Translations under genes and position numbers: made by a program | NCBI GenBank assembly: GCA_003219345.1 | Contig: QHOP01000091.1 | Location: forward strand, 1 to 37,390 | Length of the DNA stretch: 37,390 bases | Reading direction: 5' to 3' | DNA from: Verrucomicrobiota bacterium | Lineage (GTDB): Bacteria > Verrucomicrobiota > Verrucomicrobiia > Limisphaerales > AV2 | The notes under the pieces: model-generated | Database searches by the model: none | What the model was told of the DNA's origin: nothing | Seen by the model: only the letters and a program-made list of their open reading frames with translations | Shown here: positions 17,647 through 34,692 of the stretch, piece after piece | Numbering within the stretch: position 1 is the stretch's first letter | Layout: every line of letters begins with the position of its first letter

Positions 17647-17822
17647 ATCGATCGCTTTCGTTGTCGTCGCCAAAACCAAATTTGTTCTGGTGAGACCAAT
17701 ATCGGCAAAGCAGCGAAAACTCACAATTGGGGGGCTCCCTGATTGTGCTTGAGGGAAATGAACTAACCTGGCTAAGGAAAATCCTTAGCCGACCGTGCAC
17801 TGGACCCGCGAATGAATACCCA

Positions 17823-19387: not shown

Positions 19388-19621
19388 GCTTTCGCGTAAA
19401 GCTTGCTGTAAACGTGAAATAAGTCCAACGCGCCGTAGCTGTGCCCGGCGGCGCTGGCGAGCATGGCGTAGCAGGCTTTGTAAGCATGTCCGCACAACCC
19501 CCGTTCCACTTTTCGCAAAAAATGTTCAACCACTGCCAATAAAGGTTTAGTCCGCTTCAACCGGATTGCCGATGCTTTGCGCGACGGTTGAAACGAAAGA
19601 ACACGCAAAAGAATAGTTGTT

Positions 19622-21172
19622 ATGAACATGTTGAAAAGAACCTCGATACACGCCGGCGTTACGGCCTTGGCCGCCGTGTTGCTCGCATTGTCCGCCAGGC
19701 AGTTGTCCGCCGCGGCAAATCAAGCCGCCGCGCCATCCACCGGCGCGAAGCTTGTTGATCCCGACGTTACCGGCGTCGAGACGGCAGTGCTCACGCAGGC
19801 CCCGAATGTGCCGCCGCCGATCACACGAAAAAAGCCCGCCAAGGTCATCGTGACCGTGGAAGTCAGAGAAGTCACGAAGCGCCTGGCCGATGGAGTCGAG
19901 TATGTGTTCTGGACATTCGGCGGCGATGTGCCGGGCAGCTTCATTCGTGTCCGCGAGGGCGACCAGGTGGAATTTCACTTGAACAATCATCAGAACAACA
20001 AGATGCCGCACAACATCGACCTGCACGCGGTCACGGGACCGGGCGGGGGCGCCGCGTCGTCGTTCACCGCCCCGGGGCATTCCTCGCAATTCTCGTTCAA
20101 GGCGCTCAATCCGGGACTCTACCTTTATCACTGCGCGACCGCTCCGGTGGGAATGCACGTCGGCAACGGCATGTATGGTTTGATTCTCGTCGAGCCGAAA
20201 GAAGGTCTGCCACCGGCGGACCGGGAGTATTACGTGATGCAAGGCGAGTTTTACACCACCGGCAAATACGGCGACGAAGGGTTGCAGGGGTTCGACATGA
20301 ACAAGGCCACCGATGAACGACCGACCTACGTTGTCTTCAACGGCGCGGTCGGCTCGCTCGTCGGCGACAAGGCGCTTACCGCAAAAATCGGAGAGAAAAT
20401 TCGTCTGTTCGTCGGCAATGGCGGACCGAACCTCGCTTGCTCGTTCCACGTCATCGGCGAAATCCTCGACACGGTTTATCCGGAGGCCGGCACGCAGCCG
20501 ACGCACAACGTGCAAACGACCGTTATTCCTCCTGGCGGATCGGCGATTGTGGAATTCAAAGTCGAAGTGCCCGGCACGTACATCCTGGTGGATCACGCGT
20601 TGTTTCGCGCGTTCAACAAGGGCGCGCTAGGCATGTTGAGAGTGGATGGTCCGCAAGACCTGCTCGTTTATTCCGGCAAAGAAGTGGACGCCGTGTATCT
20701 CGGCAAAGCGGCGGAGGCGGGTACCGACGCCGAAAAGAAAGTCACGGCGCTGAAGGCGGAGGTTGCGCAGGAAATCAAGAGCAACCCGAAAATTGCCGGG
20801 CTGACGAAAGAAATCCAGATCGAGAAAGGCAAGGGCGTCTATATGCAAACCTGCTTCGTTTGCCACCAGCCCGAAGGCGAGGGTTTGCCCGGCCAGATTC
20901 CGCCGCTGGCCAAGTCTGACTTCCTCGCCAGTCTTGCCAAGGAAGATTACATCCGCGGGGTCTTGCTGGGGCGTAGTGGCCAAATCGTCGTCAACGGCAA
21001 GAGTTACAATGGCGTCATGACGCCGTTGAACTACCTGACGGATGAACAAATCGCCAGTGTGCTGACCTACGTTCGCAGCAGTTGGGGCAACTCCGGCGAC
21101 GCGGTGACGGTGGCGGAAGTCGGCAAATTGCGCAACGAAGTAGGCTCGCCGCCGCCCAATCCATATGAATAG
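19622..21172 (+). CDS. nirK: Copper-containing nitrite reductase NirK with C-terminal class I cytochrome c domain
   Basis: 516 aa with a signal peptide. The type 2 Cu region is [17 protein letters not shown]. The type 1 Cu ligands lie in [20 protein letters not shown]. The C-terminal heme domain has CFVCHQPEG and a distal Met region (NGVMTP). Confidence 0.92.
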
Positions 21173-22049
21173 ACGCGCAATTAAATCCGAAGCGCCGCGT
21201 GGCCGCCAACTGACTTGGAAAAGGCGAAAAGTGAACACTCGAAGGCGCCTTTCCATCACTGCGCTGCTCCTGCTGGCCGGCGGAGCGCTTCAGGGTTTAG
21301 GGCAAAAGCTGCCCGGTCCCGCGTTGTCGGGCAAACCCCCTGTCGGCATGGCTCTGATTTCCGACGGCGTATATCAACCGTTATTTCGCGCGGAAAACGA
21401 TCCGAAGGAAATTCCGGTCTCAGCGGTTTATCTCGATGTGTATCCGGTCACCAACGGCGACTTCATCGAATTCGTCCGTGCGAACCCGCGTTGGCGTCGC
21501 TCGCAAGTGAAACGAATCTTCGCCGATGAATCGTATCTGAAAAATTGGTCGGACGATCTCGACCTTGGCGCGAACGCCTCCGCAAACGCGCCGGTGACTT
21601 TTGTGTCGTGGTTCGCCGCGAAAGCCTACGCGCAATGGAAAGGTAAACGTTTGCCGACCGTGGCCGAATGGGAATACGCTGCGTCTGCGAGCCCCACGCG
21701 GCCCGACGGCGAGAACGACGGCGAATTCAAACGTCAGGTGCTTGAATGGTACTCCACCCCGGCCTCGGCGCAGCTTGCGCCGGTCGGTTCCAGTCACGCG
21801 AATTTCTGGGGAATTCATGACTTGCACGGATTGGTGTGGGAGTGGGTCGCCGATTTCAACACGGCGATGGTGACCGGCGACGCGCGCGGCGACACCGGGC
21901 TGGAACGCGATTTGTTCTGCGGAAGCGGGTCGCAGGGCGTGAAGGACACAGACAATTTCCCCGCCTTCATGCGCTACGGCTTCCGCAGCAGCCTCAAGGC
22001 CGATTACTGCGTTCACAATCTTGGCTTTCGTTGCGCCGAAGATTTATGA
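21165..22049 (+). CDS. nirV: Formylglycine-generating-enzyme (SUMF1) family protein, NirV-like
   Basis: 294 aa. It shows FGE-sulfatase-type motifs ([71 protein letters not shown]). It lies immediately downstream of nirK, as nirV does in Rhodobacter. The start is uncertain: ATG 21165 (8-nt overlap with nirK) or GTG 21231, which precedes a signal-like segment. Confidence 0.8.
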
Positions 22050-22582
22050 AACTGCGCCTGGCCATGTTCTTCGTCGCGCTGGCAGCCACGGGTCTCGCCG
22101 GCTGTGCGACGCACTTGCCCGGCCACGCGGCCAAAACTTCGTGTTGCGCTAAAGCGGAACCGCCGACGCCGTTCACCGACAAATCGCTCTATCAACTCGA
22201 CTCGCTGTGGACGACCGATGAGAATAGGCAAATCAAATTAAGCGAACTGAGCGGGCGCCCGCAGATCGTCGCAATGTTCTTCGCTAACTGCCAGATCGCC
22301 TGCCCGATCATCGTGAACGATATGAAACGCATTGAAGCCGCGTTACCCGCGGACGTGCGCGCACGAGTCGGCGTCGCTCTCGTCTCCTTCGACGGCAAAC
22401 GCGACACGCCCGCCGCGCTGGCTGATTACCGACACACGCGCCACCTGCCGGCGGAACGCTGGACGCTCCTGCGCGGAAGGCCGGACGACGTGCTGGAATT
22501 GGCGGCGTTGCTTGGCATCAAATACAAAGAGGACGCTCGTGGCCAGTTCGCGCACTCGAACGTCATCACCATCCTGAAATAG
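22046..22582 (+). CDS. SCO1/SenC-family thioredoxin-fold copper chaperone (lipoprotein)
   Basis: About 178 aa from the ATG at 22046, which overlaps the nirV stop (ATGA). The lipobox is LAATGLAGC, the CxxxC copper motif is FFANCQIACP, and a conserved His lies in QFAHSNVITIL. Confidence 0.85.
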   Translation: MKLRLAMFFVALAATGLAGCATHLPGHAAKTSCCAKAEPPTPFTDKSLYQLDSLWTTDENRQIKLSELSGRPQIVAMFFANCQIACPIIVNDMKRIEAALPADVRARVGVALVSFDGKRDTPAALADYRHTRHLPAERWTLLRGRPDDVLELAALLGIKYKEDARGQFAHSNVITILK

Positions 22583-22637
22583 TCATACCGCTGCTGGGCC
22601 AATTCGATCGGTTCGACATGAGCGTGGAACGTCCGCG

Positions 22638-23543
22638 TCAACCCGTCGCCGCTTGTTTGCGAAATTCCCGCGGTGACACTCCGACCAGGTTCTTGAAGAC
22701 AGGGTTGAAATGCGTGAGCGATTGAAAACCCGCTTCAAAGGCGAGTTCGCTGACACGCACGTTGGGGTCGAGCAACGACTTCTTGGCCCGCTCCAAACGC
22801 ACGCGCGAGAGGTATTCGCTGAATTTGATACCGGTCGCCTTCTTGAACAGTTTGCAGAAGTAGAACGTGCTGAGGTTCAGCGCCCGCGCCGTTTGGCCAA
22901 GGGAAAGGTCCGTGGCGCAATTGGCTTCGATGTAAGCCCTGGCACGCGTGATCAGAGGCGGTTCGGTGCTCCGCGCTTGCACGACGGCATGGTTGCTCAC
23001 GATGGCAAGGTGTTTGGCGAAGATGCCCAGGAGCTTCACTGCGGCGGCGTATTGTTTGTCGGTCAACGACGGCGGTTGCGCCGCCCAGCCTTCGTCCTTC
23101 GCACTCGCTCGGGGCACCCCGCGCGACGCGTCCTTTTTTCGTGAAGCCGCTGCCGGAACCTGGTCCCGGACTCGGCCAACCATTTGCAGGATGCCTACCA
23201 GGTGTCGGCCCAGCGCGAGTGGGATGGCCGCGCCGCAGTGACACGGTTCGCCCGCGACAATCGGTCCCCGGATTGGCAAGTGCATCGCGATTCGTTTCTC
23301 CGTGCGCCGGCAGCACACACAGGAGCATTTTTTTCTTCCGGGCAATCTGCAAAGCGGATTGGACTCGCTGGAAGCGCCGCCCGGCAAAGGCCACGAATCC
23401 GTAGGCCGCAGCTTAATCCCCATACCTGTGAGGTCTTTGAAAGCGCGTCTGTAATCGCGGAAGATTTTGGAACCGAGCAGCGCTCCAATCACCGTATTGC
23501 CTATCGACGGCGGGTTGGAAGGTATGGGCGCAACCGTCTTCAC
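22638..23543 (-). CDS. AraC-family transcriptional regulator with PocR-type sensory domain (copy 2)
   Basis: 301 aa and a paralog of 16762-17646. Motifs are NPLCRLPGRKKCSCVCC...PCHCGAAIPLALGRHLVGILQ and the AraC HTH STFYFCKLFKKATGIKFSEYLSRVRLERAK...VSELAFEAGFQSLTHFNPVFKNLVGVSPREFR. It is divergent from the heme-porin operon. Confidence 0.85.
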   Translation of the reverse strand: MKTVAPIPSNPPSIGNTVIGALLGSKIFRDYRRAFKDLTGMGIKLRPTDSWPLPGGASSESNPLCRLPGRKKCSCVCCRRTEKRIAMHLPIRGPIVAGEPCHCGAAIPLALGRHLVGILQMVGRVRDQVPAAASRKKDASRGVPRASAKDEGWAAQPPSLTDKQYAAAVKLLGIFAKHLAIVSNHAVVQARSTEPPLITRARAYIEANCATDLSLGQTARALNLSTFYFCKLFKKATGIKFSEYLSRVRLERAKKSLLDPNVRVSELAFEAGFQSLTHFNPVFKNLVGVSPREFRKQAATG

Positions 23544-23629
23544 GCCGTATATTTGGCATCTTATCGGCCGGCGTGCTCACCATTGGTTGCCAAAAACAAG
23601 CACTGTTAGCAGACGAGAACCGGCTTCAA

Positions 23630-23769
23630 CCATTCGCTGCAATAGGCGATGGCAAAAAAGGGTGAGTTATTGGCAATAGAGGTGGAGCAGTTCCCTGTCA
23701 TTCATGGTATCCAAACAAAATCCTGATGACGTTCCGATGGTCAAAAACTAGCGCGGTCGCGCGAAGTTA
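23630..23769 (+). repeat. Conserved ~140-bp leader/regulatory element, copy 1 (upstream of the heme-porin operon)
   Basis: It is near-identical to 30594-30732 (about 9 differences by eye). The 66-nt perfect core is AGTTATTGGCAATAGAGGTGGAGCAGTTCCCTGTCATTCATGGTATCCAAACAAAATCCTGATGAC. It contains the inverted repeat TATTG-G-CAATA and a 5' hairpin CCATTCGC...GCGATGG. An ATG follows 8 nt downstream. Confidence 0.9.
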
Positions 23770-23889
23770 AAAAGTTATGAAAAGCCATTCGCAACATCGG
23801 ACCTTCTCCCAAGTGTGTTCGTGTTTTGCCGGGCTGGCTTTTCAGGGTTCCCAAGAAAGCAAGCACTCCAACCAACAGAAGGGACAACA

Positions 23890-25188
23890 ATGAAGAACAC
23901 ACCAAGACTCATGCCGCTTGGCCTGGCTGTGATCACAAGCGCCCTGGCGATGGTGCCGATCAACGGCTGGGCCATCGCCAACTGGGCCAGGAAGTACAAC
24001 GTGGATTGCGCCACGTGTCACTCGCCAGCCGTGCCGCGATTGAATGAGTTCGGACACCAGTTCCGCAAAATGGGCTACCGGATGGATACGGAAATCCAGG
24101 CCGGCAAGCCGGAAGCCTACAAGGAAATTGGGAATTTTCTGTCCGTGCGGTTTCGCACCGGCTACGCGGCCGAGCGTTTCAGCGACCTGCAAACGGCCGG
24201 CAGTGGGTTTAACTCGTTCCGCACCCGCAACGGTTTCAGGGCGCCCGATGTCACTGTGTTTTACTCAGGTGCGTTGACGAAGAATCTGTCGCTGTTTACA
24301 GAAATTGAAGTCGCGGACGTCGATGAAACCGAGCTACAGGTGTTCGGCGAGTGGTTTAGTGGCAACCCGGACCATTACTTCACCGCGCGCATTGGACAAA
24401 TGCACACGTTGTCCCGTATTGGCTGGGCGGGGTTTGATCGTCCGACCGGCATAACCACGCCCGATGCGCTTGCTGCGGCAAAGTTGACCACCAGTCCGGT
24501 GTCGTTCAGCGTTGGCGCAGACCAACGAGGTGTGGATTTGGCTTATTCGTTTACGCCGGAGAGCCGCGCGATTGTCGGCGTTTACAATGGCGTGAACCAG
24601 CAGGGGTCAGGAATTGCGGGCAACGGCGCCGGATTTGGCGACAATGACAACGCCAAAGACGTGCTGGTGGCCTTTGAACAGATGTTAGGTGAATCTGGAT
24701 TCACACTGTTCGGATATTACGGAACGTGGGATCAGGCGGCGGGCACGGTAGTGAACGGAGTTCCTTTGCCAGACAACAACAAGTTCACCGAGTTCAACTT
24801 TCTTCGTGCCGGCGCGACTGCCTCCTGGGTGTTTAACCTGTTTGACCCGAAGACGGTCGGCAGTAGTGAATTGCAAGCGGGCTATATGTTCGCCAAAGAC
24901 TTTTACCCCAAGTCCTATCCGGTCGGCCCTACGTTCAACGGCAAAGACCGGAACGGCCAGGCGTTCTGGATCGGAGTCGAGCAACGTCTGCCGCACAGTT
25001 CAGCGGTGTTCTACCGCTACGATCACGTATCGCGAAGCAACGAGGCCAGTGGGGGTGAACGACAGCGTCATGCCCTTGGAGCGGTTTACACGTATGAACA
25101 ATATCTGAGGCTATCTCTGGAGGGATTCTGCTACGACCAGAACTCCGACTCCTTTGGCGGTCTTCTGCAAGCGATGTTCAATTACTAA
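23890..25188 (+). CDS. Outer-membrane beta-barrel protein with N-terminal monoheme CxxCH motif (fused cytochrome-porin, Cyc2-like architecture)
   Basis: About 432 aa from the ATG at 23890. It has a signal peptide (LGLAVITSALAMVPINGWA) and a single heme motif right after it (WARKYNVDCATCHSPAVPRLNEFGHQFRKMGY). The remaining ~380 aa show alternating, Gly/aromatic-rich beta-strand composition and end in an aromatic residue (LLQAMFNY), as OM barrels do. Confidence 0.7.
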   Translation: MKNTPRLMPLGLAVITSALAMVPINGWAIANWARKYNVDCATCHSPAVPRLNEFGHQFRKMGYRMDTEIQAGKPEAYKEIGNFLSVRFRTGYAAERFSDLQTAGSGFNSFRTRNGFRAPDVTVFYSGALTKNLSLFTEIEVADVDETELQVFGEWFSGNPDHYFTARIGQMHTLSRIGWAGFDRPTGITTPDALAAAKLTTSPVSFSVGADQRGVDLAYSFTPESRAIVGVYNGVNQQGSGIAGNGAGFGDNDNAKDVLVAFEQMLGESGFTLFGYYGTWDQAAGTVVNGVPLPDNNKFTEFNFLRAGATASWVFNLFDPKTVGSSELQAGYMFAKDFYPKSYPVGPTFNGKDRNGQAFWIGVEQRLPHSSAVFYRYDHVSRSNEASGGERQRHALGAVYTYEQYLRLSLEGFCYDQNSDSFGGLLQAMFNY

Positions 25189-25203
25189 CAGAAGGGTGGA
25201 TGA

Positions 25204-26331
25204 ATGAAGGCGCACCCCTGTAAAGGACGGGACCTCCTCCTGCGCCGTGCCTTTACAGGGGTGAGGTCTTGGTTGCGAAACGAATTACGAAGGACTCGCG
25301 AATTGAGTCCGACAGCAACCGCATCAACCTTTTGGGCCTCATTAGGAGTTCTGTTTTTTTATTCCACGGGCGTGTTTTCCGCTGTGGCTGAGGATACTGC
25401 ACGGTATCGCTTTGAAGAAGGCGAACCGCTGACGTACAAAACGGAGGTTGGCGTTACCAACGAAAGTCTCGTCGCCACGCGTTTCTATGATCAGTCGGAC
25501 AAGTCCCGCCACAATGAATCACTGGCATTGACCATGAATTACCAACTGATGCCCATCGTGCAGCAGGGAGATGGTCTCTGGAAGATGCGGCTGCTGTTGA
25601 ATCAGGTGGAACAAATTGTCAACCGCGACGGTTATGTCCAGAAGAAGACCCTCGATCGCGCAGCACTTCAAGCGACGAGTTCGAAACCGGGCCTGATACC
25701 TGCCAGAGAAGTCCACGGCCCGGAGGATCTCTTCGACGAACCCCTGCTGGTTTGGATCAAGTCCAATGGCATTCTGCAAAAGTTCGAAGACAGAACCGAA
25801 CTCCAGCAGGTCATACCCGGGATCAACTTGAAAGAATGCATTGAATTGGTGCTGCCGCCGCTGCTGGTTTCAGATTTGCAGGAAGGGACTCAATGGACAC
25901 GAGACGTTCCTGTCGATCTACCGGCGACCCCGATCGAAGGCCATCAACCGGAACCGATGACGCTGAAGCTCGATTATGCTGTTCGAAAGATTGAATCAAT
26001 TGACGGCCGACGTTGCGCCCGGATCGCTTTGAAGGGGCGATTTGTGCGCGATGGTTTGTCGATACCGATTCGACAGGAGGAGATGAAATATTTGATCTGG
26101 ACTACATCTATCACAAGGGTTGCCGATCAGGTGGAAGGGGAGTTTATTTTTGATTTGAGCAAAAGAACTATGCGAACCTCGGAGATAACAAGCGTCTACA
26201 ACTACGCCACCCTGGCGGGCAGAAAGCAGGACAAGTATCGCGGCAGGATTACTTCCGAAAACGAGATTCGAACGCGGCTGGTAAGCAGGCTTGTATCCGA
26301 GCCGATGGCTATTTCTTTCAGCGATGAATGA
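25204..26331 (+). CDS. Hypothetical exported protein, co-oriented directly after the heme-porin
   Basis: 375-aa ORF beginning 16 nt after the porin stop. It has a signal-like hydrophobic segment (FWASLGVLFFYSTGVFSAVA). No motif is recognised and the start is uncertain. Confidence 0.5.
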   Translation: MKAHPCKGRDLLLRRAFTGVRSWLRNELRRTRELSPTATASTFWASLGVLFFYSTGVFSAVAEDTARYRFEEGEPLTYKTEVGVTNESLVATRFYDQSDKSRHNESLALTMNYQLMPIVQQGDGLWKMRLLLNQVEQIVNRDGYVQKKTLDRAALQATSSKPGLIPAREVHGPEDLFDEPLLVWIKSNGILQKFEDRTELQQVIPGINLKECIELVLPPLLVSDLQEGTQWTRDVPVDLPATPIEGHQPEPMTLKLDYAVRKIESIDGRRCARIALKGRFVRDGLSIPIRQEEMKYLIWTTSITRVADQVEGEFIFDLSKRTMRTSEITSVYNYATLAGRKQDKYRGRITSENEIRTRLVSRLVSEPMAISFSDE

Positions 26332-26462
26332 GTTTCACAGAACGCTTTGAACGCGCCTCAAACAGAAGAGAAGACTCTGTGGCTTTGCTCGACCGATCAA
26401 AACGGGTTTTCAAGTCAACATTTTTATGCTCCAAAAAGCTGTAGATCGAGAATAAGCGCGCT

Positions 26463-26789
26463 ATGAAAAAACCAATCCTGCTCGCGGTCGCCGTGTTCAT
26501 CGCCGCCATGACATCGGGCCGCGCGGCCGACGCCAAAGAAAACTGGGAAAAGAACTGTCTAAAATGCCACGGCGCGGACGGCAAGGGCTACACCAAACTG
26601 GGGAAGAAGGCCGGGGTAAAGGACCTTACCGATCCCAAAGTACAGGCCGGCTTCACCGACGAAAAAGCGTTCAAGGCCATCAAGGAAGGCGTCAAAGACG
26701 GCGACAAAGTAAAGATGATGCCAGCGGAAAAGCTAACCGACGACGAGATTAAAGCGCTCGTAGCATTCGTTCGCGGATTGAAGAAGTGA
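26463..26789 (+). CDS. Small soluble class I c-type cytochrome
   Basis: 108 aa. It has a signal peptide (MKKPILLAVAVFIAAMTSGRAADA), the heme motif CLKCHGADGKG and a Met ligand candidate in KVKMMPA. Confidence 0.85.
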   Translation: MKKPILLAVAVFIAAMTSGRAADAKENWEKNCLKCHGADGKGYTKLGKKAGVKDLTDPKVQAGFTDEKAFKAIKEGVKDGDKVKMMPAEKLTDDEIKALVAFVRGLKK

Positions 26790-26924
26790 ATTGACCCAGG
26801 CGGTCCGCTGGCTCGCGGATGGACAACGCATCGCGGATGGGCGGCACAAGGCCGGCGTATCGCAGACGTTCTAGCCCGTTTGATTGAACAGATGAACTGC
26901 TGATTCCTCTCGAGAGCGCGAATA

Positions 26925-27395
26925 ATGCCTGAGAACACATCCAACCAGAAATCTACACGCCGAAGTTTTTTGGACCTTGTCCTGGGCGCGAGCAGCGTGG
27001 CTTGCTTGGGAAGCATTTTGTACCCCGTGATTCGCTACCTCAAACCCCTCCCTCGCGCCGGTGGAGTCGGTCCGACTCGCCTGACACCAGAAGAATTGGC
27101 CAAATTGGAGAAGGAACATTTTGTCATTGTCCCGGTGAGCGGCAAGCGGGTTCTGATACTCCAGAACGCCGCTCAGGAAATCCTGGCTGTTGACGCGAAA
27201 TGCACCCATGAAGGTTGCACCGTCCAGTATTTGCCCGGTGAATCAGTCATCTGGTGTGCCTGTCACAATGCTCGATTTGACTTGGACGGCCGCGTATTGT
27301 CCGGACCACCGCCACGGCCCCTTCCGAAGTACGCCGCGGAGCGTCAGGAAGACGGAGGAATTTTGATTGTCGCGGAGAGGAGGCAGAGTGAGTGA
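26925..27395 (+). CDS. Rieske [2Fe-2S] subunit of a cytochrome bc-type complex
   Basis: 156 aa. It has a Tat-type N-terminus (STRRSFLDLVLGASS) and Rieske boxes CTHEGC and CACHNARF. Confidence 0.9.
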   Translation: MPENTSNQKSTRRSFLDLVLGASSVACLGSILYPVIRYLKPLPRAGGVGPTRLTPEELAKLEKEHFVIVPVSGKRVLILQNAAQEILAVDAKCTHEGCTVQYLPGESVIWCACHNARFDLDGRVLSGPPPRPLPKYAAERQEDGGILIVAERRQSE

Positions 27396-28641
27396 TTCCG
27401 GCCACGGCCAAGGATGGCTGGGCTGGCTTGATCGACGTTACCAAATCACGCCCCTCATCGAATTCCTGCGTCACAAGGAGGTGCCTAAAGGGCCGCACTC
27501 GATGGTTTGGTATTACCTCGGCGGGATGACGATGTTCTTTTTCCTGGTCCAAGTCGTTACCGGAGTGCTCCTCTTGATGTACTACCAACCAGGCGAAGCC
27601 ACAGCCTACGAAAGCATTCGCTACCTGACGACCAAGGTGCCTTTTGGTTGGTTGATGCGTTCGGTCCATTGTTGGAGTGCGCACCTGATGATCATCTCGC
27701 TGGTAACGCACATGTTCAGCACGATGATGCTGAAAGCGTACCGTCCGCCGCGCGAGTTGACGTGGGTCACCGGCTACATCCTGTTTGCCCTTACCCTGGG
27801 CTTTGGCTTTTCCGGGTATCTGCTGCCGTGGAACAAGCTGGCCTTTTTCGCGACTTCGGTCGGGACCGACCTCGTCAAGTCGGTGCCACTGATCGGGAAC
27901 TGGCTGTTGCAAGTATTGCGGGGCGGCCCGGATGTGACCGCCAATACCCTGTATCGCTTCTTCGCGCTTCACGTTGTCATTTTGCCGCTGGCGTTTGTGA
28001 GCCTCATTGGCGTTCATCTCTTGTTTGTTCAACGCCAGGGCATGGCCCCGCCCCTTGGCGCCAAAGTCGCGCCTAGGGGAATGAGGTTTTTCCCCAGCTT
28101 TGCGCTGCGAGATCTGCTCTTGTGGTTGGTTTGCTTCATGGTTTTGTTGGTCTTGGCGGTGTTCGTCCCGTATGGTCCGGGAATCCCGGGTATGGACTGG
28201 GAATTGGGCCAGAAAGCTGACCCGTTGGCGCCGGCGTTTCCCGGTATTAAACCGGAGTGGTATTTCTTGTGGGAGTATCAGTTGCTGAAGGAATTTCCCC
28301 CGCACCTGTTTGGCTTGGAAGGGCCGCAATTGTGTTTGCTGGTCGTAAGTCTTCTCCTGGGCATCTGGGCCATCATTCCGTGGCTGGACCGACAAGCGCA
28401 GCGTGAGCAGCCATCGCCCGGCTTCAGTGACTTCGGCTGGGGCGCAATCCTGTTTCTGACGTTCCTGACGCTGAAGGCTTGGGACATTGGCGCTATGGAG
28501 CCTGCCACTTCCGGGTCTTCATTGAAAGTCATATCCCGAACCTGCGCCTGGTGGACCATTGGTGCCGGCGCGGTGATCATTGGAATTCGTTGGCTGCTCC
28601 AGTCATCGCGGCAGTCCTCGCCGCCGTCGGCATCGCGATGA
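27388..28641 (+). CDS. Cytochrome b (fused b6-like N-terminal part plus subunit-IV-like C-terminal part)
   Basis: About 417 aa from the GTG at 27388, with AGGAGG 4 nt upstream and an 8-nt overlap with the Rieske gene; TTG 27367 is the alternative start. The heme ligand pairs are H-x13-H (HCWSAHLMIISLVTH) and H-x14-H (HVVILPLAFVSLIGVH). The Qo-site motif is KPEWYFLWEY. The YYLGG segment has no Cys that would bind heme ci. Confidence 0.9.
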   Translation: MSDSGHGQGWLGWLDRRYQITPLIEFLRHKEVPKGPHSMVWYYLGGMTMFFFLVQVVTGVLLLMYYQPGEATAYESIRYLTTKVPFGWLMRSVHCWSAHLMIISLVTHMFSTMMLKAYRPPRELTWVTGYILFALTLGFGFSGYLLPWNKLAFFATSVGTDLVKSVPLIGNWLLQVLRGGPDVTANTLYRFFALHVVILPLAFVSLIGVHLLFVQRQGMAPPLGAKVAPRGMRFFPSFALRDLLLWLVCFMVLLVLAVFVPYGPGIPGMDWELGQKADPLAPAFPGIKPEWYFLWEYQLLKEFPPHLFGLEGPQLCLLVVSLLLGIWAIIPWLDRQAQREQPSPGFSDFGWGAILFLTFLTLKAWDIGAMEPATSGSSLKVISRTCAWWTIGAGAVIIGIRWLLQSSRQSSPPSASR

Positions 28642-28687
28642 TTTTTCTTCGGACGGCCGAAAGGAGAGTTAATCCGGGAGGTTCACG

Positions 28688-30232
28688 ATGAGAATCATTT
28701 CGTCTTTCCTATGCCCGGTCCTGTGCGTCTCCCTGGCAGCCGTTGCGGCGGATGAAAAACCGGGCGTCATTCCCGAAAAGCTGGCAGGATTGTTTGCCGC
28801 ACAAGGGAAGGATGGCAAACCGACAATCACTCCGGAACAGCGAACCTACTTTGACGGGTTGAATGATCGCCTCAAAGCTCTCCTCATCAAGACGGTTGAG
28901 GCGGAGGTCATCACTCGCCCCGAGCATTTGGGGACCATCCTGGCGCTGGGCTTGCGTCCGCAAAAGATGGAGATTCTCTTACAAGACAATTGCATCCTGT
29001 GTCACACGGACCCCGAAGTGCAGAAGCCCGAAACGCTTCTTACTCTTTCTCCGGCGCCGGGCAAAACCCCCTCGCATCTGAATCTGCAGGACTTTGTTGA
29101 TGATGTTCATTTTCTCCGCGGCCTGTCCTGTGCCGGTTGCCACGGTGGGGATCCTGGCAGCGACAAGCTCGAACACTCTTTTGTCAAGGAATGGCCAAGC
29201 GCCGGCCGTGACAAGGATCGTGGTTGGATTCTTTCTTTCTGCGCACGCTGCCATTCCGACTCGACGTTCATGAATCGATTCAATCCCGCGTTGCCTACCG
29301 ACCAGTTGGCGAAGTACAAAGACAGCCCGCACGGAAAGTTCCTGCTGGAAGCCCGAGACGCCCGCGCTCCCGATTGCTTGAGTTGTCACGGTGTCCACGG
29401 CATCCGCAGCGCCAAAAACCCGCTCTCGAAGGTTTACCGCAAGCGGGTCCCGGAAACCTGCGGCGCCTGCCACTCAGATGCCAAGCGGATGGCCGGCCTG
29501 ACTCTGTCCGACGGTTCGCCCATGCCCACCAACCAACTCGCGGAATACCGCGCCAGCGTGCACGGTCGCGCGTTGCTGGAGCGCGGCGATCTGGGCGCGC
29601 CGGCGTGCAACAACTGTCACGGCAACCATGCCGCTATGCCGACTGGCCTGTCGAGCGTGAGCCAGAGCTGCAGTCTCTGCCACGCGGGCAACGCCAGCTT
29701 GTTCGATGGCAGCAAACACAAGCAGGCTTTCGAGGAGCACAAATGGCCCCAGTGCGCGAAGTGCCACGGGAACCATGTCATCGCCAAGACGCACGATTCG
29801 ATGTTAGCCGCCGGGCAGGAATCCTTGTGCAACAAATGTCATCAGCAATACGCCAAGGACAATCCCGAGTGCAACGCAACCGCGACTTACTTTTACACCT
29901 CGCTAGCGCAGATGGACCAGGTCTGGAACGAGTTTGGCGTCACCGCTGATCGATTGGCCATGAAAGGCCTGGACGTGGACCCGATCCACGACAAGTTGAA
30001 CGAATTGGCGGACAGCTTGAAACAGGCTCGTTCTCACATTCACTCATTCAGCAAAAACGACTTCCAGCGAGCCGCCGATCCGGGAGAGAAAGCCGTTCTG
30101 GGCATTTCCAGGTTGGTTGAAGAAGCGAAGGCAGAATATCGGTTCCGGCAACTCGGTTTGGTCACGACCATCGCATTGATGGGATTAGTGATGTTGGCTC
30201 TCTATGTTAAGCTTCGCCGTCTCGAACGTTAA
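28688..30232 (+). CDS. Membrane-anchored nine-heme c-type cytochrome (bc-complex-associated)
   Basis: 514 aa with a signal peptide. There are nine CxxCH motifs: CILCH, CAGCH, CARCH, CLSCH, CGACH, CNNCH, CSLCH, CAKCH and CNKCH. A C-terminal TM helix (LGLVTTIALMGLVMLALYV) is present, and GGGAGG precedes the ATG. Confidence 0.9.
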   Translation: MRIISSFLCPVLCVSLAAVAADEKPGVIPEKLAGLFAAQGKDGKPTITPEQRTYFDGLNDRLKALLIKTVEAEVITRPEHLGTILALGLRPQKMEILLQDNCILCHTDPEVQKPETLLTLSPAPGKTPSHLNLQDFVDDVHFLRGLSCAGCHGGDPGSDKLEHSFVKEWPSAGRDKDRGWILSFCARCHSDSTFMNRFNPALPTDQLAKYKDSPHGKFLLEARDARAPDCLSCHGVHGIRSAKNPLSKVYRKRVPETCGACHSDAKRMAGLTLSDGSPMPTNQLAEYRASVHGRALLERGDLGAPACNNCHGNHAAMPTGLSSVSQSCSLCHAGNASLFDGSKHKQAFEEHKWPQCAKCHGNHVIAKTHDSMLAAGQESLCNKCHQQYAKDNPECNATATYFYTSLAQMDQVWNEFGVTADRLAMKGLDVDPIHDKLNELADSLKQARSHIHSFSKNDFQRAADPGEKAVLGISRLVEEAKAEYRFRQLGLVTTIALMGLVMLALYVKLRRLER

Positions 30233-30470
30233 TACGGCCGCGGTGATTAACGATGCGTCCATCGCAACCTCCTCGCCCGTCGGACAGGCCAGTGTGAATG
30301 CCCGCGGAGAAGATTGCGGCCCGCGCGACTACCGTCATGTGTGTGCGGACAGATATTTCTTTCCACACAGAGGCCATTCTTCACCATGGAATTACTGAGC
30401 GGTCCCTCGCATAAACGACACCCAGAGACTGTCGAACCGTTGTTTCCCCCCACCCTGACCCGAAATTGAC

Positions 30471-30525
30471 TCAGTCCCGATCTTGCGCGCTTGCGTGAAT
30501 TGACAAACGCGCAACCTTTTCTTGC
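30471..30525 (+). repeat. Hairpin-containing ~55-bp extragenic repeat, copy A
   Basis: TCAGTCCCGATCTTGCGCGCTTGCGTGAATTGACAAACGCGCAACCTTTTCTTGC is about 85% identical by eye to 34623-34676. Its stem is TTGCGCG/CGCGCAA around GAATTGACAA, and TTTTCTT follows. Confidence 0.75.
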
Positions 30526-30540
30526 CATGTACTGGGGAGT

Positions 30541-30580
30541 CCCTTGGATAAGGCGACAGTCACCGACTCTTATCCAAGGG
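30541..30580. repeat. Perfect 12-bp inverted repeat (stem-loop)
   Basis: CCCTTGGATAAG (30541-30552), a 16-nt loop, then CTTATCCAAGGG (30569-30580). It extends by 4 more base pairs (GGAG/CTCC) after one mismatch. It sits between the two repeat elements of the 505-bp intergenic region. Confidence 0.85.
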
Positions 30581-30593
30581 CCTCCTCAGTAAG

Positions 30594-30732
30594 CCATTCG
30601 CTGCACAGGCGATGGCAACCAACGGTTAGTTATTGGCAATAGAGGTGGAGCAGTTCCCTGTCATTCATGGTATCCAAACAAAATCCTGATGACCTTCCGA
30701 TGGTCAAAGACTAGCGCGGTCACGCGAAGTTA
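30594..30732 (+). repeat. Conserved ~140-bp leader/regulatory element, copy 2 (upstream of the cytochrome c / porin / diheme operon)
   Basis: See copy 1 (23630-23769). It ends 5 nt before the ATG at 30737. Similarity continues through the ATG (ATGAAGTACC versus ATGAAAAGCC). Confidence 0.9.
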
Positions 30733-30736
30733 GCAG

Positions 30737-31114
30737 ATGAAGTACCGACAAATTAAAGCTACTAAAAATATGAACCGACCCAGCTCCTTGAAATCACGTC
30801 TGTGGACCGGCGCCAGCGTCGCGGTGCTTGGAGCGCTCCTTTACGCTCTGTCCAGCGTTTTCGTTCCCGGCGCAGGTGCCAAAGCGGAAAAGAAAACAGA
30901 AAAAAGGGTCGAGAAAAAGCCGGAGAAGAAAAAGCTCAGCGGAGCGGAGCTGTATTCGATGCATTGTAACAGGTGCCACCCCGAACGTTATCCAACGGAG
31001 AGGACCGCGGCGCAATGGAAAACCATCCTGCTCCACATGCGCGTGCGGGCGAACCTTCCTGCCGAACAGTCGCAGATGATCCTCAAATACCTGCAGGACA
31101 ACAGCGGACGATAA
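30737..31114 (+). CDS. Membrane-anchored monoheme c-type cytochrome
   Basis: 125 aa (alternative Met at codon 12). It has an N-terminal TM/signal anchor (LWTGASVAVLGALLYALSSVFV), a Lys/Glu-rich linker (KAEKKTEKRVEKKPEKKK) and a single heme motif CNRCHPERYP followed by WKTILLHMRVRANL. Confidence 0.8.
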   Translation: MKYRQIKATKNMNRPSSLKSRLWTGASVAVLGALLYALSSVFVPGAGAKAEKKTEKRVEKKPEKKKLSGAELYSMHCNRCHPERYPTERTAAQWKTILLHMRVRANLPAEQSQMILKYLQDNSGR

Positions 31115-31150
31115 GCGGCTGAACCCGGATAAAATGGCAAAAACGTTAGC

Positions 31151-32530
31151 ATGAAAACACGTTCCTTCGCGTTGGGATGCGCGTGCATATGCTGTGCGCT
31201 AGTGGTTCCGCTACCGGTCGGGACAGCGGCCGCTATCGACGACCAGCAGTTCAACGAATTGAAAGACCTAGTCACCAAACTAGGCCAGAAAATCGAAACA
31301 CAGGACCAACGGATCGAGCAACTGGAAAAAACACATGCGCAAGATGCGCAGGTCCACGCGCAAGATCAGAAGACTCATGAACAGGACCAGCAGAAAATCC
31401 AGGAACTGCAGCAAAAGCTGGGAGAAACACAACAAGCAGTCTCGAACGTCCAAACGGCGGCGATAGCGGTCCCAGTGGAACCGCTGCCTCGGGTGCCGCT
31501 GGACGAGGCCACCGTCAACCATAACTTCTCCATTCTCGGTGATGCTGAGTTTCAATACGCCAAGACCTCGGGCCAGCATGGGACATTTTTGTTCGCGGAT
31601 TTTGCGCCCATTTTCCTATATCGGGGCGGAGAGAAGGTCCTGTTCGAGGCCGGTTTCGATTTTGGTTTGCAGAATAACGCTCCGAACAGTCCCGGGGCCA
31701 CTACGACCATCAATCTAAGCTTCGCCCAATTGGATTACCTGATGAACGATTATGTGACATTGGTGGCGGGAGACATGGTGCTGCCTCTCGGCACTTATAG
31801 CGAGCGGACCGCGGGCTGGTTGAACAAAATTCCTGATGATCCATTGCCTCGCGACCTGCTGCCAGGTGCGGGCGTGGGGGCGCAGTTACGAGGGGCTGTT
31901 CCGCTGGGCGAGAGCGGAAAGTTAATCAACTATTCCGTGTGGGGTGTGAATGGGGCAAGCTCGGCGGATGGCACCGGCAATGCCGATCAACTGGATTTGG
32001 GTGGGAACGTGGGCCTGCGGTCGGACAATGCGGTGGCCAATTTGCACGGCAAACCGAGCGGCGGCGCGCGCGTGGGGTGGTTTATGCCTTTCAAGCCCCA
32101 CTACGATCTGGAACTGGGCCTTTCGGGTCAATCGGGGGAATGGGATAACGCGGGACAGCATCTGTGGTCCGCGGGCGTGCTGGACGCCAGCCTGCACCTG
32201 GGATCGACCGTTGAGGTCAAGGGCGAATATATCCGCAGTTGCTATGGAAGCGACGATCACGGGAACGTCCGACCCGAGGGATGGTGGTTGCAGGCCAGCT
32301 ATAAGCTCGTTGGATTAAATCTGGATTGGCCGGTTATCAATAACCTGGAACTGGTGAACCGGTATGACAGTATCCACGATGGCCTGGGCACTCGGACCCG
32401 GCGGTATACTCTGGGCTATATCTACTATTTTTCGAATACGCTGCTGTTCGAAGGAGGTTATGAATTTCTCCACAGCAATGATCCAACTCAGAAAGACCAG
32501 TTGATTTTCCAACTTTCCTATGGGTTTTGA
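31151..32530 (+). CDS. Outer-membrane porin with N-terminal coiled coil (phosphate-selective porin O/P-like organisation)
   Basis: 459 aa with a signal peptide. It has a Gln/His-rich heptad coiled coil (LEKTHAQDAQVHAQDQKTHEQDQQKIQELQQKL) followed by a beta-strand-rich region. It ends in the barrel terminal signature LIFQLSYGF. Confidence 0.7.
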   Translation: MKTRSFALGCACICCALVVPLPVGTAAAIDDQQFNELKDLVTKLGQKIETQDQRIEQLEKTHAQDAQVHAQDQKTHEQDQQKIQELQQKLGETQQAVSNVQTAAIAVPVEPLPRVPLDEATVNHNFSILGDAEFQYAKTSGQHGTFLFADFAPIFLYRGGEKVLFEAGFDFGLQNNAPNSPGATTTINLSFAQLDYLMNDYVTLVAGDMVLPLGTYSERTAGWLNKIPDDPLPRDLLPGAGVGAQLRGAVPLGESGKLINYSVWGVNGASSADGTGNADQLDLGGNVGLRSDNAVANLHGKPSGGARVGWFMPFKPHYDLELGLSGQSGEWDNAGQHLWSAGVLDASLHLGSTVEVKGEYIRSCYGSDDHGNVRPEGWWLQASYKLVGLNLDWPVINNLELVNRYDSIHDGLGTRTRRYTLGYIYYFSNTLLFEGGYEFLHSNDPTQKDQLIFQLSYGF

Positions 32531-33389
32531 AGCCTTCATGTTGAAAATCGAACCTGATTATTACCAACATACTATGCCCACATGCATATTCCATAACAGC
32601 AAGCGGTCGCGTTTAATCCGAGCCTGTCTCCTGGCCACGCTCGCGTGCCTATCCAGCACTTGGGCTTTGGCGCAGAGCGCCTCCGCAACGACGGAATCAA
32701 CGAATCAAGCGCCAACTTACCTACGGGACGTATTGCCTATCATCATGGGAAAGTGCTCCAGATGCCATAACGAGCAAGCGCGGTTTGTTTACAATTGGCT
32801 GGATTACCGGACGGCCTATGCAGATCGCTGGGAGATCAGAAGACGGTTGTGGGACAGTTGGAAGGGGACTTATTTCAAGGAATCAATGCCGATCGCGAAT
32901 AGTCCTGAATCATTGGCGATCACCGATGAGGAACGGTTAACGATCCGGAATTGGGTGGCTGCCGGTGCGCTTCGTGGTGTTACTCCGCCGCCAGGCGCGC
33001 CAAAATCCAAAGCTGAGAAAATTGAGCTTGGCAGGCGTCTGTTTACTTCCATCTGCGCAGCTTGTCATCAGCCGACGGGCCAGGGACTCCCGAACGTATT
33101 TCCACCTCTGGCCAGCTCGGATTTTCTAAATGCGGACAAGAACAGAGCGATAAAAATTGTAATCAATGGCCGGCAGGGAGAGCTGATTGTCAATGGAAGA
33201 AAATTCAACAATAGCATGCCTCAGTTTCCACTTAGCGATGACGATATCGCCAACGCCCTGACCTTCGTTTACAACTCATTCGGAAACGCGGGACTTGAGG
33301 TCAAACCGGAAGAAGTCAAATTCCTTCGCACCCAGCCGCCCGATCCAGAAGGACCAAGAGGCATCCCTCAGAAGAGCCCATACGAGTGA
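32520..33389 (+). CDS. Diheme c-type cytochrome (N-terminal PVC-type heme domain plus C-terminal class I domain)
   Basis: 289-aa ORF; the start is uncertain (Mets at 32520, 32538 and 32574, the last preceding a signal peptide LLATLACLSSTWALA). The heme motifs are GKCSRCHNEQ and ICAACHQPTGQGLP. The C-terminal domain is clearly similar to the NirK C-terminal heme domain. Confidence 0.8.
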   Translation: MGFEAFMLKIEPDYYQHTMPTCIFHNSKRSRLIRACLLATLACLSSTWALAQSASATTESTNQAPTYLRDVLPIIMGKCSRCHNEQARFVYNWLDYRTAYADRWEIRRRLWDSWKGTYFKESMPIANSPESLAITDEERLTIRNWVAAGALRGVTPPPGAPKSKAEKIELGRRLFTSICAACHQPTGQGLPNVFPPLASSDFLNADKNRAIKIVINGRQGELIVNGRKFNNSMPQFPLSDDDIANALTFVYNSFGNAGLEVKPEEVKFLRTQPPDPEGPRGIPQKSPYE

Positions 33390-34676: not shown

Positions 34677-34692
34677 GACGACTCCTTCCATG

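Follow-up and report, generated by a model that had tools for sequence, protein, structure and literature searches.

The stretch of DNA analyzed here (the window) comprises 37,390 nucleotides of contig QHOP01000091.1 from a Verrucomicrobiota bacterium, and its positions 19622–33389 hold an island of redox genes in which a Cyc2-like fused cytochrome-porin is encoded together with a Rieske/cytochrome b complex whose third gene specifies a nine-heme cytochrome. The joining of Cyc2-type genes to Rieske/cytochrome b genes recurs across phyla, and closely similar operator sites precede the Cyc2-like operon and the cytochrome/porin operon behind it. Our tentative reading, held with slightly less than even confidence, is that the region constitutes, in a Limisphaerales-like soil Verrucomicrobium, a co-regulated respiratory island of three transcription units with a shared AraC-type operator, organized around a hub of periplasmic c-type cytochromes. 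Unit 1 would comprise nirK (with a fused cytochrome c domain), nirV and sco; unit 2 would run from the Cyc2-like gene to the nine-heme gene; and unit 3 would consist of the genes for a small monoheme cytochrome (cyt125), a coiled-coil porin candidate and a diheme cytochrome.

The Cyc2-like cytochrome-porin

The Cyc2-like gene (23890–25188, plus strand) encodes a 433-residue fused monoheme cytochrome-porin with a signal peptide, a single CATCH motif at residue 41, a 16-strand barrel and the C-terminus ...FNY. The putative signal peptide, MKNTPRLMPLGLAVITSALAMVPINGWA, precedes the conserved block of the protein and aligns with signal-like N termini across the family, in which the CxxCH is invariant (31 of 31 aligned homologues). 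The heme block reads AIANWARKY-NVD-CATCH-SPAV-PRL, where P50, R51 and L52 are invariant in the 31-member alignment; the consensus of this alignment is AIPAWARKYGVxCxxCHxPAVPRLNxxGHQFRKxGYR, and its members terminate in NF or NY.

Cyc2 is defined by Keffer et al. 2021 (PMC8406198) as a protein of at least 365 residues with a signal peptide, a single CXXCH, an upstream AxPxFAR[Q/K][T/Y], a PxL four residues past the CXXCH, and a 16-strand porin. The window protein possesses the putative signal peptide, the single CXXCH, the PxL, the modelled 16-strand porin and the length (433 residues). Its AIANWARKY agrees with the strict AxPxFAR[Q/K][T/Y] signature at five of the seven specified positions, the P being changed to A and the F to W, while the family consensus AIPAWARKY agrees at six of the seven. 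Because the strict signature fails, the protein is called Cyc2-like and not Cyc2, and a filter built on the published expression would discard it.

An AlphaFold2 model computed with the family alignment (predicted local distance difference test, pLDDT, 83.4; predicted TM-score, pTM, 0.81) contains 16 strands after a short helical N-terminal region, and its best Foldseek matches in the PDB are the 16-strand porins PorB, OprP and Omp32, whereby the first of the two barrels in the original prediction does model as an outer-membrane porin. A sequence search of the PDB gave nothing useful for this protein. Its 52 close homologues are all unnamed; a scan of GTDB genomes with the single sequence found no relatives, whereas the family alignment did recover loci. 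Furthermore, an exhaustive profile search with the family returned 3462 cluster representatives at E ≤ 1e-3, and among the top 150 matches 35 carry the exact P.FAR[QK][TY] motif and 19 the W variant, while a cluster look-up of the distant matches gave only 'hypothetical protein'. In hhalign, the family profile aligns over the full length (probability 99.9%, E 3.3e-32, 382 columns) with a protein from a Gallionellaceae metagenome-assembled genome (MAG), which starts AMPNFARKYNKSCAMCH and carries the canonical AMPNFARKY...CAMCH. Homology to the Cyc2 superfamily, which the original prediction had suspected for this first beta-barrel with an N-terminal CxxCH, is borne out by motif, profile and fold, and on this basis the protein is best described as a divergent member of the superfamily with a putative role as an iron oxidase.

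Like Cyc2 of Acidithiobacillus ferrooxidans, Cyc2PV-1 of Mariprofundus ferrooxydans and Cyt572 of Leptospirillum, the window protein combines a signal peptide, an N-terminal CxxCH with ARKY before and PxL after it, and a 16-strand porin in about 430 residues. Unlike in these proteins, W replaces F in most family members and A replaces P in the subclade of the window, the gene lies in one operon with Rieske and cytochrome b genes, and the Verrucomicrobial gene is paired with that of a clade-specific all-beta protein.

The Rieske/cytochrome b complex encoded with the Cyc2-like protein

The all-beta protein (25204–26331, plus strand; 375 residues, exported) is the constant partner of the Cyc2-like protein in the Verrucomicrobial clade, its gene following the Cyc2-like gene in L001, L076, L077 and L078, where L-numbers denote loci of other genomes returned by the homology scans. 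Only 25 homologues were found. Its AlphaFold2 model (pLDDT 76) consists of long antiparallel sheets, for which a fold search yielded TM-scores of at most 0.36 (lipid-transfer beta sheets, LmcA; porins 0.15) and no convincing match in the PDB. The window copy is without about 27 residues that are present in its 94% identical relative and in all other homologues. The signal region carries a twin-arginine-like RRFTG motif in some homologues and a plain Sec-type signal in others.

Downstream of this pair, a soluble monoheme class I cytochrome c of 108 residues (26463–26789, plus strand; Pfam Cytochrom_C and Cytochrome_CBB3) is encoded at a position that is conserved in L001 and L078. It is followed by the Rieske 2Fe-2S subunit (26925–27395, plus strand), which contains CTHEGC...CACH and matches PF00355 at 1e-12 together with PetC-type NCBIfam families, and by a full-length cytochrome b (27367–28641, plus strand) with a b6 part and a subunit IV-like part, which matches PF00033 at 5e-51, PF00032 and the b6/cytochrome b chains in the PDB. 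The position of cytochrome c1 is occupied by a c-type cytochrome of 514 residues (28688–30232, plus strand) with nine CxxCH motifs and a C-terminal membrane helix. This protein is recognized by Pfam Cytochrome_C7 and Paired_CXXCH_1; it has no c1 match in Pfam or NCBIfam and no PDB relative by sequence. Since the third gene thus specifies a nine-heme cytochrome and not the monoheme cytochrome c1 of a canonical bc1 complex, the Rieske/cytochrome b complex is of non-canonical composition. Homologues with nine CxxCH motifs also follow the Rieske and cytochrome b genes in L003–L005.

Rieske/cytochrome b complexes of similar construction exist in anammox Planctomycetes, where the R/b-2 and R/b-3 complexes of Kuenenia contain multiheme and flavoprotein subunits and multiheme cytochromes replace c1. 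The window complex shares this replacement and differs in being without a flavoprotein and without an HAO-like subunit. Between the nine-heme gene and the next copy of the upstream repeat described below, an inverted repeat (30530–30591; 23-nt arms, 91% complementary, 16-nt loop) may form a hairpin that terminates the Cyc2/bc operon or may mark the edge of the duplicated segment.

Recurrent linkage of Cyc2-type and Rieske/cytochrome b genes

A first genome scan with the family alignment of the Cyc2-like protein returned 75 loci in Verrucomicrobiota, Omnitrophota, Planctomycetota, Nitrospirota (including Manganitrophaceae and Nitrospira) and Gemmatimonadota. In 30 of these 75 loci, from Planctomycetota, Omnitrophota, Nitrospirota and Gemmatimonadota, the Cyc2-like gene has a cytochrome b gene on the same strand within 4.5 kb. 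Leaving out contigs of insufficient length raises the proportion to 30 of 41, an upper estimate, as short contigs with a positive result were retained. The second scan, based on a 10-sequence alignment of canonical-motif members, returned 62 loci in Acidobacteriota, Ignavibacteriota, Bacteroidota, Myxococcota, Eisenbacteria and others; Rieske and cytochrome b genes are found nearby on the same strand in 17 of them, downstream except in L099. Given these frequencies, the link from the outer membrane to quinone is recurrent and not a product of chance, and the conduit to the quinone pool that the original prediction had envisaged gains support from comparative genomics, as a functional link between the outer-membrane cytochrome-porin and the Rieske/cytochrome b complex.

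The gene order varies among the phyla. The closest parallel to the window is provided by L003–L005 (Omnitrophota and Planctomycetota), in which genes for a monoheme cytochrome c, the Cyc2-like protein, the Rieske protein, cytochrome b and a nine-heme cytochrome follow one another, with a gene for a six-heme protein after the nine-heme gene in L004 and L005; the cytochrome b of these three loci is the most similar to that of the window outside Verrucomicrobia (49–53% identity). In Gemmatimonadota the order is Rieske, cytochrome b (with one CxxCH), Cyc2-like and monoheme cytochrome c, and in Nitrospirota it is Cyc2-like, monoheme cytochrome c (none, one or two), Rieske and cytochrome b.

In the literature, the connection of Cyc2 to bc1 is a model assembled from separate operons (PMC10654088; PMC5566968), and the cyc2 and pet genes of Leptospirillum are explicitly unclustered (PMC10654088). 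No description of an operon-level linkage between Cyc2 and Rieske/cytochrome b genes was found in the literature searched, the coverage of which is incomplete. Compared with the rus and petI operons of A. ferrooxidans (PMC5566968, PMC10654088), the window likewise joins an outer-membrane Cyc2-type protein, periplasmic carriers and a dedicated bc-type complex leading to quinone. In A. ferrooxidans, the system includes rusticyanin, CycA1 and a bc1 complex working in reverse, with cyc2 and pet in separate operons, whereas the window holds a single operon without rusticyanin, a nine-heme cytochrome in place of c1, and NirK instead of an aa3 oxidase as the adjacent terminal enzyme.

The nirK-nirV-sco unit

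Unit 1 starts with nirK (19622–21172, plus strand), which encodes a copper nitrite reductase fused at its C-terminus to a class I cytochrome c domain. The protein exceeds the cut-off of the TIGR02376 equivalog (354.6 against 296.3 bits), contains Pfam Cu-oxidase and Cytochrom_C domains, the latter at residues 400–488 with the heme motif CFVCH at residue 411, and has full-length PDB matches in 3ZIY/4AX3 and 2ZOO (E about 1e-182 to 1e-177), all of which assign it to the cytochrome c-fused class of copper nitrite reductases. It shows the same two cupredoxin domains and C-terminal cytochrome c as RpNiR of Ralstonia pickettii (3ZIY/4AX3) and the enzyme of Pseudoalteromonas haloplanktis (2ZOO); measured against these three-domain enzymes it is ordinary, and only its neighboring genes are unusual. 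The next gene (21165–22049, plus strand) overlaps the nirK stop and encodes a protein of the FGE-sulfatase/SUMF1 fold (PF03781 at 3.9e-36), which we take to be NirV from the organization of nirK-nirV operons. The third gene (22046–22582, plus strand) specifies a SCO1/SenC copper chaperone (PF02630 at 9e-14) with a CQIAC motif, probably a lipoprotein judging by the LAGC in its translation.

Outside Verrucomicrobia, nirK and a Cyc2-like gene are adjacent in L014 (Manganitrophaceae), where NirK, a 124-residue monoheme cytochrome and a Cyc2-like protein are encoded in a row (139–2822). The L014 NirK is 63% identical to that of the window and is without the fused cytochrome. This locus is an independent nirK-Cyc2 adjacency in another phylum.

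The cytochrome/porin/diheme unit

Unit 3 consists of three genes on the plus strand. The first (30737–31114) encodes cyt125, a small exported monoheme cytochrome of 125 residues with a CNRCH motif and a Lys/Glu-rich linker; directly downstream lies the gene (31151–32530) for a 459-residue candidate porin, in which an N-terminal coiled coil with invariant His and Asp residues precedes an OprO/P-like barrel region ending in ...SYGF; and the third gene (32520–33389) encodes a diheme cytochrome with CSRCH in its N-terminal domain and a class I C-terminal domain. This last domain is ~45% identical to the cytochrome domain of NirK, and a NirK query matches the diheme position in L079–L094. In every locus examined (L079–L094), a cyt125 homologue lies immediately upstream of the porin gene, and in the closer relatives the diheme gene then follows. 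With more than 1657 homologues of the coiled-coil protein, unit 3 is a widespread uncharacterized Verrucomicrobial cassette.

Of the coiled-coil porin in the original prediction, the coiled coil stands, while the porin nature rests on the ...SYGF terminus, sub-threshold Porin_O_P signals in the barrel parts (E 0.013 and 0.08) and a weak hhalign match to the last strands of the Cyc2-like barrel (probability 68.6% over 76 columns). Among 19 family members, Porin_O_P is matched by four and Porin_4 by two; no PDB sequence match was obtained for the window protein. An amphipathic beta-strand score was discarded, as it did not separate the Cyc2-like barrel from the soluble all-beta protein. In the coiled coil, H62, D65, H76 and D79 are invariant in 19 homologues and form His/Asp pairs 14 residues apart, which could constitute a metal-binding site in a trimeric stalk.

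The porin modules belong to two unrelated types: the first is a fused Cyc2-type protein, and the second combines a separate monoheme cytochrome with an OprO/P-like porin. As in MtrAB, MtoAB and PioAB (PMC5566968), a cytochrome gene adjoins a porin gene in unit 3. In the MtrAB type, however, a decaheme cytochrome passes through the porin, which has 28 transmembrane strands in MtrB (PMC5566968), whereas the unit 3 cytochrome is monoheme with ~75 residues in its mature form, and the barrel region spans ~350 residues behind an N-terminal coiled coil. No homology to MtrAB, MtoAB or PioAB was detected, and a single CxxCH, a barrel of ~350 residues and only Porin_O_P-like signals set unit 3 apart from the MtrAB/PioAB type. 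A homology of cyt125 to the Cyc2 heme domain was considered and rejected, as none is apparent by eye or by BLAST; 'split Cyc2' is an analogy.

In L081 (882–8340), L088 (9561–17079), L089 (9610–17076) and L091 (191–7761), the cytochrome/porin pair is followed by genes for a ~155-residue monoheme protein, a 640-residue Fer4_20/Pyr_redox_2 flavo-iron-sulfur protein, a Rieske protein, cytochrome b and a six-heme cytochrome, so that a link to Rieske/cytochrome b genes recurs for modules of the unit 3 type as well; in L081, L088 and L089 the pair is preceded by a PocR-AraC gene. This arrangement recalls the anammox Rieske/cytochrome b complexes with an NAD(P)-linked subunit, the 640-residue protein before the Rieske and cytochrome b genes being comparable to the flavoprotein subunits of Kuenenia R/b-2 and R/b-3. 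By analogy, the small cytochrome and coiled-coil porin might represent an undescribed, unfused counterpart of Cyc2 and a new class of conduit that would be abundant in Verrucomicrobia, a proposal that we consider doubtful. If it were true, this pair and the Cyc2-Rieske/cytochrome b operons of about ten phyla would together define a general, hitherto unrecognized respiratory arrangement, in which a one-heme gate in the outer membrane is connected to a bc-type complex of its own.

The shared operator and its candidate regulators

The Cyc2-like and cyt125 operons are preceded by two copies of a repeat, both on the plus strand. Copy 1 (23630–23775) contains an operator (23651–23688), the promoter region and the 5' untranslated region upstream of the Cyc2-like operon, and copy 2 (30594–30738), with its operator at 30614–30651, is the native upstream region of the cyt125 operon. 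The original prediction described a 140-bp leader shared by both porin modules; the repeat itself is confirmed (23630–23769 against 30594–30732, 140 nt, 93.6% identity), and it proves to be mainly operator and promoter instead of leader. Conservation is highest in GGCAAAAAAGGGTGA-N6-TGGCAATAGAGGTGGAGC, which comprises two similar half-sites; the first reads GGCAA-N5-GGTGA and is repeated 21 bp downstream as KSCAA-N5-GGTGGA. A degenerate form of this pattern occurs at four sites in the window against 0.44 expected. In addition to the Cyc2-like and cyt125 operons, these four strong sites precede the gene of a 173-residue protein with a cyclic nucleotide monophosphate (cNMP)-binding domain (site 18376–18413, minus strand) and the gene of a 231-residue protein (site 14569–14606, minus strand; gene 13838–14533, minus strand).

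Two weaker operator-like sites were detected with a position weight matrix (PWM), for which 20 shuffles gave a maximum background score of 16.3. One (19514–19551, plus strand; score 24.9) is situated about 70 nt upstream of nirK and was not used to build the matrix; the other (34640–34677, minus strand; score 20.9) is upstream of the gene for a 99-residue membrane protein (34270–34569, minus strand). Outside the window, a matrix built from window sites only finds sites upstream of the cyt125 homologues in L080, L081 and L087, at the same position as in the window, upstream of the Cyc2-like gene that adjoins a PocR-AraC gene in L065, and upstream of the cNMP-binding genes in L080 and L081. The copies at nirK and other genes suggest one regulon, to which the gene at 13838–14533 would probably belong on account of its strong site. 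That gene and its neighbor at 13190–13762 (minus strand) encode adjacent paralogous proteins without a Pfam family. The cNMP-binding protein itself (17823–18344, minus strand) is apparently without a DNA-binding domain, and similar stand-alone cNMP-binding genes adjoin the cytochrome/porin cassette in L080 and L081.

A riboswitch or other structured RNA leader was considered for the repeat; no Rfam match was obtained at gathering thresholds or at E ≤ 1 and the predicted fold is ordinary (z = -0.41), which favors a DNA operator over an RNA leader. An FNR/Dnr-type box (TTGAT-N4-ATCAA) was likewise discarded, with one match against 1.2 expected, located inside the sco gene, and a scan for sigma-70 and terminator consensus sequences showed no enrichment over shuffles and was uninformative. 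The paired half-sites ~21 bp apart beside the promoter, with an AraC-family gene nearby, resemble AraC/XylS-type operators, and this geometry, together with the constant presence of PocR-AraC genes, points to an AraC-type activator.

Two AraC-family regulators are encoded in the vicinity. The one at 22638–23543 (minus strand; HTH_18 at 3.4e-23) is divergent from the Cyc2-like operon, and its PocR signal is weak (8.6e-4; 19.5 bits against the Pfam cut-off of 23.9). The second, at 16762–17724 (minus strand) and outside 19622–33389, carries both PocR (1.5e-24) and HTH_18 (2.5e-24) and is a candidate operator-binding protein; a 55% identical homologue is encoded upstream of the Cyc2-like gene in L065, and PocR-AraC genes lie beside homologous modules in L065, L080, L081, L088, L089, L090 and L093. 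Genes nearby encode a PAS histidine kinase, a LuxR-type response regulator, three universal stress proteins and the cNMP-binding protein described above, a neighborhood suggestive of a stimulon for low oxygen or nitrogen oxides.

Ahead of the Cyc2-like gene, a putative upstream open reading frame (uORF) of 38 codons (23777–23893, plus strand) opens with the ATG of cyt125, which was duplicated along with the leader of that gene, and closes with a TGA that shares bases with the ATG of the Cyc2-like gene (ATGA). Such a frame may possibly serve translational coupling, or may be a scar of the promoter duplication.

Gene content and mosaic history of the island

Positions 19622–33389 contain 13 credible intact genes and not the 15 consecutive genes counted before. 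The earlier count of 15 CxxCH motifs in seven proteins is reproduced exactly by script, nine of them in the 514-residue cytochrome, and the identified proteins do span outer membrane, periplasm and inner membrane as had been stated. Intact open reading frames exist for each of the gene identities listed in the original prediction; what is weaker than stated is the PocR domain of the AraC regulator within the island, which scores under the Pfam cut-off. No Pfam or NCBIfam family is matched by the 433-residue CxxCH barrel, the 375-residue exported protein, the 125-residue monoheme cytochrome or the 459-residue coiled-coil protein. The supposition of a genome of the Planctomycetes-Verrucomicrobia-Chlamydiae type is correct. 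The relatives of the porin gene are nearly all Verrucomicrobial: a 99% identical copy is present in the soil MAG Verrucomicrobia bacterium AV4 (QHPA01000159, L082), and relatives at 80–85% identity are labelled Limisphaerales, Verrucomicrobiia or Verrucomicrobiota, with the exception of one at 83% labelled Candidatus Acidoferrum.

The 14-kb cluster is not conserved as a unit, an outcome that the original prediction had named as refuting, and the cluster fails on this count; the modules individually pass, and relatives carry them separately or in other combinations. The order of the window is repeated only in L082, of the same species, from cytochrome b onward. In L087, nirK-nirV-sco is followed by genes for a PAS protein and a radical SAM protein and then by cyt125, porin, diheme and GYD genes, without the Cyc2/bc block, and in L076 the Cyc2-like pair stands alone in an unrelated context. 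L078, the closest non-identical relative of the Cyc2-like operon, whose Cyc2-like protein is 82% identical, has the order Crp, Cyc2-like, partner, cytochrome c, 7-heme cytochrome, 721-residue protein, two cytochromes c, Rieske and cytochrome b; its 7-heme cytochrome and 721-residue protein, which resembles an outer-membrane protein (OMP) and ends in ...MQYRF, form an MtrAB-like pair (5240–8253) between the Cyc2-like genes and the Rieske/cytochrome b genes. The simplest history would start from a native arrangement of AraC gene, promoter and cyt125-porin-diheme, with a ~7-kb Cyc2/bc block inserted behind a copy of the promoter.

Working model and alternative readings

The analysis establishes what the parts are, that the Cyc2-like protein has a porin fold and belongs to the Cyc2 superfamily, that both outer-membrane modules recur beside Rieske/cytochrome b genes, and that an operator is shared, in weaker form also by nirK. 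From these findings we infer the substrate, the direction of flow, the physical contacts, the regulator and the inducing signal of the system, with the periplasmic c-type cytochromes as its hub. The heme of the Cyc2-like protein, in its 16-strand barrel, would exchange electrons one at a time with a species dissolved outside the cell, most probably Fe2+, and the soluble cytochrome c and the nine-heme subunit would carry the electrons across the periplasm. From there they could pass downhill to the cytochrome domain of NirK, which would reduce nitrite to nitric oxide (NO) and act as a local sink; alternatively, the Rieske/cytochrome b complex could exchange them with the quinone pool, operating forward with organic-derived quinol and in reverse if Fe(II) were the sole donor. 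Unit 3, by position and context, would connect a further, unfused cytochrome/porin pair to this pool of cytochromes, and the inducing signal would probably be low oxygen and/or nitrogen oxides. Inward flow would agree with the activity of all Cyc2 proteins assayed so far, which are Fe(II) oxidases (PMC8406198; PMC13647500), and with the nirK-Cyc2 adjacency in L014. The link of nirK to the island is suggested by the adjacency in the window, the operator-like site, the adjacency in L014 and the layout of L087, where unit 3 lies a few kb downstream of nirK-nirV-sco. Fe(II) oxidation coupled to nitrite reduction is, by analogy, plausible here.

Several observations weigh against this model. The clade departs from the strict published Cyc2 motif (W for F and, in the window, A for P), and Cyc2 homologues are common in organisms not known to oxidize iron. 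Outside the species of the window, nirK lies within about 10 kb of a Cyc2-like gene in only 2 of the 137 surveyed loci, and the operator sites at nirK and at 34677 are much weaker than the four strong ones. The adjacency of the three units is not evolutionarily stable, as indicated by the leader duplicated at 94% and by L087 without the Cyc2/bc block. Furthermore, the window contains no genes for NO reductase, carbon fixation or a terminal oxidase and hence gives no basis for judging lithotrophy or complete denitrification.

Electrons might also flow outward, as part of the anaerobic respiration kit of a heterotroph: menaquinol would be oxidized by the Rieske/cytochrome b complex, and the electrons would travel via the nine-heme subunit and cytochrome c to NirK and, by way of the Cyc2-like protein, the second porin module or both, to soluble acceptors outside the cell, for example chelated Fe(III), Mn(III) or humic quinones. 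This scheme is equally compatible with the enzymology of Rieske/cytochrome b complexes, whose usual direction is from quinol to cytochrome c, and with a heterotrophic host, as the lineage appears to be when judged only by the ordinary genes around related loci; multiheme subunits in the place of c1 suit long-range transfer, and L078 possesses the MtrAB-like pair of 7-heme cytochrome and OMP, an architecture that serves both metal reduction and metal oxidation (PMC5566968). It is nevertheless unlikely in our estimate, given that it runs counter to the activity of every tested Cyc2 (PMC8406198; PMC13647500), that a single heme in a narrow porin is thought to handle dissolved ions only, and that no outer-surface multiheme cytochrome is encoded in the window. 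The same low probability is assigned to an ordinary branch of nitrite respiration, in which the complex and the small cytochromes feed only NirK, the coiled-coil porin admits anions, for example nitrite or nitrate, and the Cyc2-like protein serves some purpose outside respiration, for instance as a redox-sensing or detoxifying channel. The textbook route from a bc-type complex via cytochrome c to NirK, the anion-selective Porin_O_P as the only family signal of the second barrel, the ~45% identity between the diheme C-terminal domain and the NirK cytochrome domain, which suggests a shared docking partner, and the presence of nirK-nirV-sco beside unit 3 without Cyc2 in L087 all speak for such a branch, and for unit 3 a plain nitrite-respiration role with solute porins is possible. 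It leaves unexplained, however, the 47 Cyc2-Rieske/cytochrome b loci in about ten phyla, nearly all without nirK, as well as the invariable cyt125-porin pairing and the modules of the unit 3 type before nirK-less Rieske/cytochrome b operons (L081, L088, L089 and L091).

Least probable, in our judgment, is a fortuitous mosaic, in which the Cyc2/bc block recombined between an AraC-controlled promoter and the native cyt125 operon, beside an unrelated nirK operon and with no joint function. The duplicated leader, which includes the cyt125 start codon that now heads the uORF, the absence of the block from L087, the solitary Cyc2-like pair in L076 and the restriction of the island as such to the same-species L082 would fit a mosaic, but the modules recur together in other combinations elsewhere. 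Moreover, the inserted block acquired the same operator, whereby unit 3 and the block would now be regulated together, and a related site precedes nirK.

Relation to known systems and significance

Cyc2 itself, bc-type complexes with multiheme subunits, and Cyc2 feeding denitrification are known or already proposed. The last of these has been proposed for Ferrigenium straubiae of the Gallionellaceae culture KS, for 'Ca. Siderophilus nitratireducens' and for Zetaproteobacteria with nirK, and the pathway concept is therefore not new. In these proposed cases of Fe(II) oxidation with nitrate or nitrite, as in the model for the window, Cyc2 would form one electron chain with periplasmic cytochromes, a bc complex and an enzyme of denitrification; the organisms are Proteobacteria with dispersed genes, whereas in the window, from a Verrucomicrobium, the genes are clustered and share an operator. 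New to our knowledge are the operon-level joining of Cyc2 with a Rieske/cytochrome b/nine-heme complex and the range of phyla involved, the partner protein specific to the clade, the uncharacterized cassette of cytochrome, coiled-coil porin and diheme cytochrome, and an operator by which, in a Verrucomicrobium, these are linked with nirK.

Cyc2 is the main genetic marker by which iron oxidation is inferred in metagenomes, and the electron route from it to the inner membrane is still argued from scattered genes. The window and the 47 other loci lend direct genomic support, in many phyla, to a route from Cyc2 via cytochrome c to a bc-type complex, and their operons are compact gene sets that could be expressed together. 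In addition, the related operator at nirK makes this soil Verrucomicrobium a testable candidate for metal-linked nitrite reduction, the enzymatic basis of which is disputed. Two uncharacterized protein sets are exposed as well, namely the all-beta partner of the Cyc2-like protein and the cytochrome/porin/diheme cassette, the latter common in an abundant soil phylum.

Neighboring genes

On the right flank of the island, three tandem universal stress protein genes (35625–37379, minus strand) are consistent with a stress- or anoxia-responsive neighborhood. A radical SAM protein encoded at 34693–35676 (minus strand) is 56% identical to the one at 8294–9310 in L087 and accompanies the modules in both genomes. 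On the left side of the window, type IV pilus/type II secretion genes (1640–7551, minus strand; 29–820 and 8865–9653), a set of one T2SSF, three T2SSE ATPases and two prepilin-type N-methylation proteins, are apparently unrelated to the island. Between them and the regulators, a gene for a DUF6932 protein is followed by a 73-residue open reading frame (together 12256–12968), whose start overlaps the DUF6932 stop, and the two resemble a small two-gene accessory cassette.

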